Below are positions 1 to 1,164 of a stretch of 1,164 nt of DNA, one piece after another. A model generated the notes under the pieces. It saw only the letters and a program-made list of their open reading frames with translations. It had not been told where the DNA came from and ran no database searches. The stretch is from assembly GCA_000004985.1 (NCBI GenBank), contig GG739519.1; one strand, 5' to 3'. A program made the position numbers and the translations under genes. Origin of the DNA: Naegleria gruberi (Eukaryota). Each line of letters opens with the position of its first letter. Positions within the stretch are counted from its first letter, which is position 1.

Positions 1-62
1 AATTTGTCGGGTGAAAAGTAAAACCATTTATTGATAGTAAATTTGATGGTGCAGCACTATTC

Positions 63-857
63 TTGATTGTGGATGAAATTAAAAAAGGGAAAGAGGATTC
101 TAATATTTTACAAGTATTACAAACAATGTTTCATTTTGGTGGTATTATTATGGACTCTCAATTAACAATAACCTGTATTAGAATTATAAATTGGGTGAAA
201 GATAATTTAATCAAAGTTAATACTATTAAGCCTATCATTGAAGAGAATGATCTTTTAAGTTTTATATTTATATTGGGTATTAGTGAAGAAATTGAACTAA
301 TACATAAAAAAGTTGAAGAATCCTCACAGATTGTTGTACATGGATTTGGATCTGATTTTACATTTGTAGGAAGAGGTGTTGTTTTAGAAAAATTTAATTC
401 ATGCTATGAAAATTATTACAATTCACTTAATAATAATGGACAAGTAGACAGAGATAATGTTATATTTCCATTTATAGCAGCAGCACCTGGTATTGGAAAA
501 TCAAGAATGATGAAAGAAATTGGTATTCAAATGTTTCATAACAAACAATTCTTTCCATTATTTACTTCATTTGGTAATGCAACTAAGTTTGATGAACCAT
601 TAGAACTAAATCCAATTAATGGTTTATGTATTAGAATAATATATTCACTTCTATGCGCATTTAAAGGAAAGAATAATGCAGGCGCTTTTTATGAATTAGT
701 TTCAAAATGGTATAATTATTTTGGAAATAGAAATGTTTACGATTTACAAACAATTTTAAAAGTGTGTAAACAATTAATTTCTCCAAAAGAGGAACTTAAT
801 TTCTTTTTAGGAATGGAGTACAAGTTCTTGATAAATGTGGTCAATTTAGCTTACTAG
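63..857 (+). CDS. P-loop NTPase-like protein, N-terminal ~135 aa unknown domain followed by a Walker A motif. Probably the 5' portion of a longer gene that continues in the -1 frame. Start is uncertain (TTG 63, GTG 69 or ATG 126). The frame is open back to the TGA at 12-14.
   Basis: A 264-codon open frame from the supplied ORF track, confirmed by hand. Walker A AAAPGIGKS at nt 477-503, where GIGKS = ggt att gga aaa tca at 489-503. A stop-free stretch of 281 codons is very unlikely by chance in sequence this AT-rich. There is no convincing Walker B (hhhhD/E) between the Walker A and the stop at 855-857 in this frame. No Shine-Dalgarno-like sequence precedes any candidate start. Confidence 0.65.
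   Translation: MIVDEIKKGKEDSNILQVLQTMFHFGGIIMDSQLTITCIRIINWVKDNLIKVNTIKPIIEENDLLSFIFILGISEEIELIHKKVEESSQIVVHGFGSDFTFVGRGVVLEKFNSCYENYYNSLNNNGQVDRDNVIFPFIAAAPGIGKSRMMKEIGIQMFHNKQFFPLFTSFGNATKFDEPLELNPINGLCIRIIYSLLCAFKGKNNAGAFYELVSKWYNYFGNRNVYDLQTILKVCKQLISPKEELNFFLGMEYKFLINVVNLAY
477..503 (+). other. Walker A / P-loop nucleotide-binding motif (AAAPGIGKS), a variant of GxxxxGK[ST] with Ala in the first Gly position.
   Basis: Direct translation of gca gca gca cct ggt att gga aaa tca. It is preceded by a hydrophobic beta-strand-like segment, VIFPFI, as is typical of P-loop folds. Confidence 0.7.
800..857 (+). other. Frame-overlap zone where coding signal switches from frame 0 to frame 2, a -1 frameshift. 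It contains the T5 homopolymer at 804-808 and the TAG stop at 855-857.
   Basis: Both frame 0 and frame 2 are open across this 58-nt interval. Upstream only frame 0 is open, and downstream only frame 2. Confidence 0.5.
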
Positions 858-1164
858 TATCAGCACTTGGTAAATATTTGCAAGAACCTAATTGTGGAAT
901 ACTTTATCCTTTATTTACAGGTACTTATTATACAGGTGTAAGAGAAAGTGTATTGGGAAGTGGTTGGACTCCACAATATATTCCAATGGATGCCATGTTA
1001 CCAATATCAAGTTTAGATGAAATAATAGATGCACTAGTTTTAAAATATAATGGTAAATTAAAAGAATGGAGAATTGATATGTTCTTTAAGCATTATTTAA
1101 GAACATTACGTGGTTATGCAAGAGGTGTGAGAATATTATTTATCTCATTTATTCAAAAAGATGA
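800..1164 (+). CDS. Open reading frame in frame 2 (-1 relative to the upstream CDS), 3'-truncated by the window end. Probable C-terminal continuation of the NTPase domain: FLFRNGVQVLDKCGQFSLLVSALGKYLQEPNCGILYPLFTGTYYTGVRESVLGSGWTPQYIPMDAMLPISSLDEIIDALVLKYNGKLKEWRIDMFFKHYLRTLRGYARGVRILFISFIQKD...
   Basis: Hand translation: the frame is stop-free from nt 800 (just after the TAA at 797-799) to nt 1164, 121 codons. It was not listed in the ORF track, presumably because it has no in-window stop. Codon usage matches the upstream CDS (GGT, CCA, AGA, TTA). The first ATG in this frame is at 986 and a TTG is at 878, neither with an RBS, so an independent gene start is poorly supported. The motifs hhhhD (VQVLD, nt 818-832) and LFTGT (nt 911-925) have NTPase-like spacing. 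Confidence 0.55.

Follow-up and report, generated by a model that had tools for sequence, protein, structure and literature searches.

The window, by which we mean the whole 1,164-nt stretch analysed here, is a fragment, truncated at both ends, of one ~800-aa AAA+ ATPase gene from a family that is restricted to Naegleria and Willaertia. A single gene is divided between two reading frames, the gap that divides it measures four nucleotides and lies at positions 816/817, and signals for translational recoding are absent. The loss of these four bases, which span the invariant Walker B Asp-Glu codons, leads translation in frame 3 into the TAG at 855-857 and leaves the remainder of the protein in frame 2. 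We estimate at roughly 93% the probability that the arrangement stems from an insertion or deletion at the DNA level, and not from translational recoding, an intron or two separate genes.

The window constitutes an entire orphan scaffold of the Naegleria gruberi Sanger draft assembly. On its plus strand, to which all features below belong, frame 3 (numbered frame 0 in the first-pass annotation of this DNA) is free of stop codons from 15 to 854, a run of 280 codons terminated by the TAG at 855-857. From 800 onwards, frame 2 is stop-free as far as the window end (121 codons), such that the two frames overlap only between 800 and 857. Conceptual translations and the list of open reading frames thus confirm the geometry originally claimed for this locus, with two long frames, a narrow overlap and a T5 run at 804-808. 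Among 20,000 Markov-1 control sequences, an open run of 280 codons occurred in none, and 177 (0.9%) had one of 121 or more codons in any of the six frames; since runs of these lengths are rarely or never matched by randomised windows, the two-frame geometry exceeds what chance would produce. The longest open run on the minus strand is 81 codons, an unremarkable length given that the maximum in random sequences averages 70. The composition of the window is AT-rich, and its G+C content of 27.5% is lower than the published genome-wide value for N. gruberi (33%; PMC8296547). Searching protein databases gave a match at 100% identity, the 243-aa "predicted protein [Naegleria gruberi]" (P0001), which extends from the ATG at 126 to the TAG at 857, a premature stop that is met in frame 3 only owing to the break at 816/817.

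When 1.84 billion representative proteins were searched exhaustively with HMMER, 22 relatives were found; the long relatives (750-950 aa) originate from N. gruberi (XP_002679855.1), N. lovaniensis, N. fowleri, Willaertia magna and a few contigs of environmental or other origin. The closest long homolog, the paralog P0002, is 51% identical to the fused product (E = 1e-88) and aligns with query residues 97-381 without a break at the junction, and its own open reading frame is uninterrupted on its contig (L002). When 13 homologs were compared with the window by tblastn, their N-terminal parts matched frame 3 up to ~818-839 and the remainder matched frame 2, collinearly, from ~818-854. Because the homologs cover both segments collinearly within one protein, the two open reading frames represent the halves of a single gene, as the first-pass annotation had proposed for a P-loop NTPase gene split across two frames; the comparison that it had suggested, of the conceptual fused protein with homologs, showed the long homologs crossing the junction in one frame. 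In a word-indexed protein search, the fused query retrieved only its self-match, P0001, and the downstream 115 aa retrieved no protein; such negatives are untrustworthy for a protein from this AT-rich genome, as the indexed search missed both P0002 and P0008 (93% identical), each of which was recovered with HMMER. Scans of JGI metagenomes with protein patterns, and with a DNA pattern that contained a gap and covered the junction, recovered no junction-spanning orthologs, and looking up the exact P0001 protein gave no record.

The break coincides with an invariant motif of the family. In a MAFFT alignment, the Walker B motif h-h-[G/A/S]-h-D-E was found in 13/13 long homologs, exactly at the junction, where P0002 reads NFFIGMDEVQIIN. 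In the window, the Walker B beta-strand N-F-F-L-G-M (798-815) is intact in frame 3 and aligns with NFFIGM of P0002; it is followed by the dinucleotide GA at 816-817, the remnant of the Asp-Glu codons with four bases fewer than the paralog, and then by VQVLDK in frame 2 from position 818. The same gap is evident in DNA alignment with L002, in which the paralog reads ggtATGGATGAGGTACAAat and the window reads ggaATGGA----GTACAAgt; in codons, ATG GAT GAG GTA CAA of the closest paralog corresponds to ATG GA GTA CAA, and the deposited junction sequence with its 4-nt gap is GGAATGGAGTACAAG. We also tried all 1-nt and 4-nt insertions at each position from 797 to 856, and scored the products against a profile HMM of the 13 homologs. 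The global optimum was a 4-nt insertion at 816/817 (311.3 bits), yielding FFLGMDEVQ, whereas the best 1-nt repair, at 817, yielded GMDVQ and scored 298.8 bits.

These results bear on the first-pass suggestion that the T5 run at 804-808 had lost a nucleotide. Its premise, that a gain of 3n+1 nucleotides restores the frame, is sound, and extending T5 to T6 is arithmetically valid; the repair is, however, misplaced, as it wrecks the conserved strand FFLGM (its product being NFFFRNGVQ) and scores only 284.7 bits. The best repair and the gap in the paralog DNA alignment together place the lesion 8-13 nt beyond the T5 run, within the codons for Asp-Glu, and a 4-nt gap precisely at 816/817 is not a homopolymer-length error.

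Two further frame disruptions, both missed by the first-pass annotation, were found close to the ends of the contig. At the 5' end, positions 1-17 carry a frame-1 remnant of the same gene, NLSGEK, for which a closely related environmental contig (L001) reads AAT TTG TTG GTT GAA AAA GTA (NLLVEKV) in one frame. The switch from frame 1 to frame 3 lies in the A4 run at 14-17, at most 17 nt from the contig end, where L001 has A5 (blastn); the apparent TGA stop at 12-14 is a by-product of this missing adenine. Frame 3 then encodes VKPF...NFFLGM from 18 to 815, which covers the helical N-terminal region together with the AAA+ core as far as the Walker B strand (tblastn and MAFFT). As tblastn queries, P0002-P0007 each gave a single frame-3 HSP in this region, ending at 818-839. 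Frame 2 encodes VQVLDK...GYARGV from 818 to 1129, comprising the remaining AAA+ core and the lid (tblastn with P0002-P0007, P0012, P0014 and P0017).

At the 3' end, one base at 1129-1130 is surplus relative to the homologs and causes a hidden switch from frame 2 to frame 3, in which the segment EYYLSHLFKKM (1131-1163) runs off the contig. The family pattern at this site is RG[IL]E[YF][YF]L, with the Glu present in 13/13 homologs; frame 2 of the window has an Arg instead (RGVRILF), and frame 3 from 1131 reads EYYLSHLF. Dropping base 1129 or 1130 gives RGVEYYL, brings the HMM score to 324.2 bits, up from 311.3 (+12.9), and makes for a closer match to the paralog at the nucleotide level. The last three codons, with an A5 run at 1155-1159 and AAA GAT (K D) where the paralog has R D, may revert to frame 2 in a stretch too short to call. 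In total, the window departs from its relatives by three indels, a loss of one base at 14-17, a loss of four at 816/817 and a gain of one at 1129/1130. All 382 codons of the repaired coding sequence are free of stops, even though 6% of random substitutions would introduce one, and the sequence retains the conserved residue in 32 of the 36 columns conserved in at least 10 of the 13 homologs; one of the four misses is the invariant Glu, explained by the 3' indel.

The environmental contig L001, a 530-nt sequence from an Illumina assembly that encodes P0008, represents a sister copy of the gene, being 96% identical to window positions 1-276 (265/276 aligned bases). It shows where the true N-terminus lies, a Met and ~71 more codons (L001 28-240) that are off the contig in the window; ~400 C-terminal codons are likewise absent. 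L001 has a frame-breaking lesion of its own, a 13-nt insertion (TACATACAATTAG) at L001 465-477, between window positions 223 and 224, which brings in a TAG and cuts the L001 open reading frame to 149 aa. The insertion and the gap in the window are different lesions, and L001 is broken independently of the window. Of the 11 substitutions between the two copies, 7 are nonsynonymous and 4 synonymous, a ratio indistinguishable from neutrality (P = 0.15), and two fall inside the first 11 nt of the window.

The most likely cause of the gap is, we infer, a sequencing or assembly error, to which we give about an even chance and which we favour over a real and recent pseudogene. The four bases would be missing through poor sequence quality on a minimal-size, low-coverage orphan scaffold of a Sanger draft; the real gene would then be intact, reading ...NFFLGMDEVQVLDK..., and its true junction would be GGAATGGATGA(A/G)GTACAAG. 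We favour such an error because the scaffold is a minimal-size orphan, most of the indels hug its ends, two of the 11 substitutions relative to L001 fall within its first 11 nt, the repaired coding sequence is free of stops and 32 of 36 conserved columns are kept. In particular, no more than 35 nt separate two of the three indels from the ends of the contig, which would be expected in ~1% of cases if they were placed at random along 1164 nt, and this points to low-quality read ends.

A substantial minority probability goes to the alternative that the 4-nt deletion is real, making the locus a recent pseudogene or null allele that has lost its frame together with the catalytic Asp-Glu of Walker B, and read-end errors or further decay could then account for the two 1-nt indels near the contig ends. 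Loss of 4 nt outside a homopolymer is typical of a slippage deletion and atypical of a base-calling error, and the ancestral sequence, probably ATGG-ATGA(R), would be a quasi-tandem repeat prone to slippage. In addition, the nearer contig end is 348 nt away from position 816, and at such a distance good quality would normally be expected of at least one read. The independent break in L001 suggests that the gene lineage is decaying, and the 7:4 ratio of nonsynonymous to synonymous substitutions is compatible with relaxed constraint (P = 0.15). The locus is known solely as an orphan scaffold, as expected of repeat-embedded or degenerate copies, and an intact near-identical copy was found neither in the protein collections, by indexed and exhaustive searches, nor with patterns in JGI metagenomes. 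Against a real deletion, the 382 stop-free repaired codons and the almost complete retention of conserved residues require that inactivation be very recent, and the position of two of the three indels against the contig ends, with its ~1% expectation for real mutations, shows that the contig does contain sequence errors. All explanations other than such an error or a pseudogene/null allele are, taken together, very improbable.

One of these is programmed -1 ribosomal frameshifting within 800-857, which we consider very unlikely, in agreement with the first-pass annotation. The downstream frame does stand in the -1 relation to the upstream one, and the overlap contains a T-rich stretch with the near-slippery sequence CTTTTTA at 803-809, a likeness to known -1 frameshift sites. 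However, the window differs from such sites in lacking a slippery heptamer, a stable structure and a conserved layout: no X XXY YYZ heptamer is present, the sole candidate, C TTT TTA at 803-809, failing at the first X. No stimulatory RNA structure was detected in the 98 nt from 803 to 900, whose minimum free energy of -15 kcal/mol was equalled or surpassed by 138 of 200 shuffled sequences (z = +0.5). Moreover, a slip anywhere in 800-815 would break the conserved FFLGM, and none could supply the Asp-Glu, so that the product would lack the catalytic residues. The two-frame layout is shared by 0/13 long homologs, all of which pass through the site in a single frame. Searches of the window for Rfam families and tRNA genes gave no match.

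Because the host is a eukaryote, a spliceosomal intron has to be weighed as well, an option absent from the first-pass list. Such an intron, GT..AG and 3n+2 nt in length, would join frame 3 to frame 2; introns do exist in N. gruberi (1.7 exons per gene, with a mean intron of 203 bp; PMC8296547). We enumerated all GT/GC..AG pairs of length 3n+2 that leave both frames open, and scored the five best against the HMM. These phase-compatible GT..AG candidates, at 824-849, 818-849, 764-810 (with a good polypyrimidine acceptor), 766-818 and 710-810, reached 254.6-281.8 bits as compared with 298-311 for indel repair, a shortfall of 16-57 bits, and each of them deletes conserved residues. Furthermore, homology in frame 3 extends to 815 and that in frame 2 begins at 818, such that the 2 nt between them leave no room for an intron, the paralog open reading frame is continuous at the site, and the 26- and 32-nt candidates are far shorter than the reported mean. 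An intron is accordingly a most improbable explanation.

Equally improbable are two separate genes, the first ending with the TAG at 857, where the database model P0001 stops, and the second beginning at TTG 878 or ATG 986, because homologs of 750-950 aa span both segments collinearly within one protein, the homology of the second segment begins at 818, upstream of either start, and no protein was found in the word-indexed search to match the downstream 115 aa alone. The two candidate starts are indeed present in frame 2, as the first-pass annotation had stated, whereas its argument that neither has a ribosome-binding site does not apply in a eukaryotic host.

The protein to which the fragment belongs is an AAA+ ATPase by motif and by fold. 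A Walker A motif (P-loop) A-P-G-I-G-K-S is encoded at 483-503; it fits GxxxxGK[ST], and its residues G159, G161 and K162 are invariant among the 13 homologs. The Walker B motif hhhhD-E is complete in the family, whereas in the window its strand FFLGM (801-815) is present and the Asp-Glu codons are reduced to GA. P-loop and AAA+ enzymes depend on the Walker B Asp for coordinating Mg2+ and on the Glu for activating water; a frameshifted copy that has neither residue would be inactive. The alpha-beta-alpha core and helical lid that characterize the AAA+ fold were found, and an AlphaFold model of the paralog P0002, built from the family alignment (mean pLDDT 82, pTM 0.76), places the Walker B strand at E291-296, so that the gap in the window falls at the C-terminal end of this strand.

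The top Foldseek matches of the P0002 model were ORC/Cdc6 proteins. Searches of Pfam and NCBIfam gave nothing for either open reading frame half or for the fused protein, and among the long homologs Pfam matches remained below the gathering score (ATPase_2, 14.4 against 33.2; AAA_16, 15.7 against 32.6; NACHT, 13.5 against 26.7; AAA_22 was also weak). These weak matches agree with the structural similarity to ORC/Cdc6. No match was obtained in a sequence profile search of the PDB with the family, or with the PADLOC defence models. The closest known protein systems are the archaeal-type AAA+ ATPases (ATPase_2, PF01637; PDB 2qen and 2fna) and the related group of ORC/Cdc6, STAND (NB-ARC) and TnsC proteins. 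The family differs from the archaeal-type AAA+ ATPases in showing no Pfam, NCBIfam or PDB match at the sequence level above threshold, and in adding an N-terminal helical and a C-terminal beta-rich domain; the window copy differs further in lacking the Asp-Glu codons.

Members of the family were found only in Naegleria, Willaertia and a few environmental contigs, and matched no curated family. Their C-terminal half, which lies outside the window, contains the beta-rich domain with a GD...QCK motif resembling PD-(D/E)xK; some members show a weak PDDEXK_5 match and HhH matches, and P0007 reaches the gathering score of HHH_3 with 28 bits. Modules of NTPase, HTH and REase, with HhH in some cases, are described for the C-termini of Crinkler (CRN) effectors in PMC5289972, which summarises Zhang et al. 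2016. The combination of NTPase, putative nuclease and HhH in the family resembles this architecture, a tentative lead drawn from the literature. The family differs from Crinklers in that no Crinkler N-terminal domain or CRN-specific model was matched, and its putative nuclease domain is outside the window.

Taken as a case of its kind, the locus is an ordinary gene fragment that an indel has broken, on an orphan scaffold of poor quality. It resembles split gene models in draft genomes and ordinary frameshifted pseudogenes in that one gene occupies two frames through a 3n+1 indel in a conserved motif, the annotated protein (P0001) is truncated, the scaffold is an orphan of minimal size and further indels occur at its ends. 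There is no difference in kind from these; what is unusual is a 4-nt, non-homopolymer gap that removes exactly the catalytic Asp-Glu. The frameshift brings no new biology, be it recoding, homopolymer phase variation or a new gene arrangement. For the annotation of N. gruberi, it means that the 243-aa P0001 is truncated, as an artefact of the frame being broken, and that 115 downstream coding codons are unannotated; the true gene belongs to an uncharacterised family of ~800-aa AAA+ ATPases restricted to Heterolobosea. A more far-reaching interpretation, which we regard as rather unlikely, is that the 4-nt deletion is real and that the window and L001 are independently decaying copies within a lineage-specific Naegleria/Willaertia family combining archaeal-type AAA+ ATPase, putative PD-(D/E)xK nuclease and HhH modules. 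If true, this would suggest a conflict module under fast birth-and-death, or a module derived from a mobile element, in a free-living amoeba, with a module architecture similar to that of the Crinkler NTPase-REase effectors.
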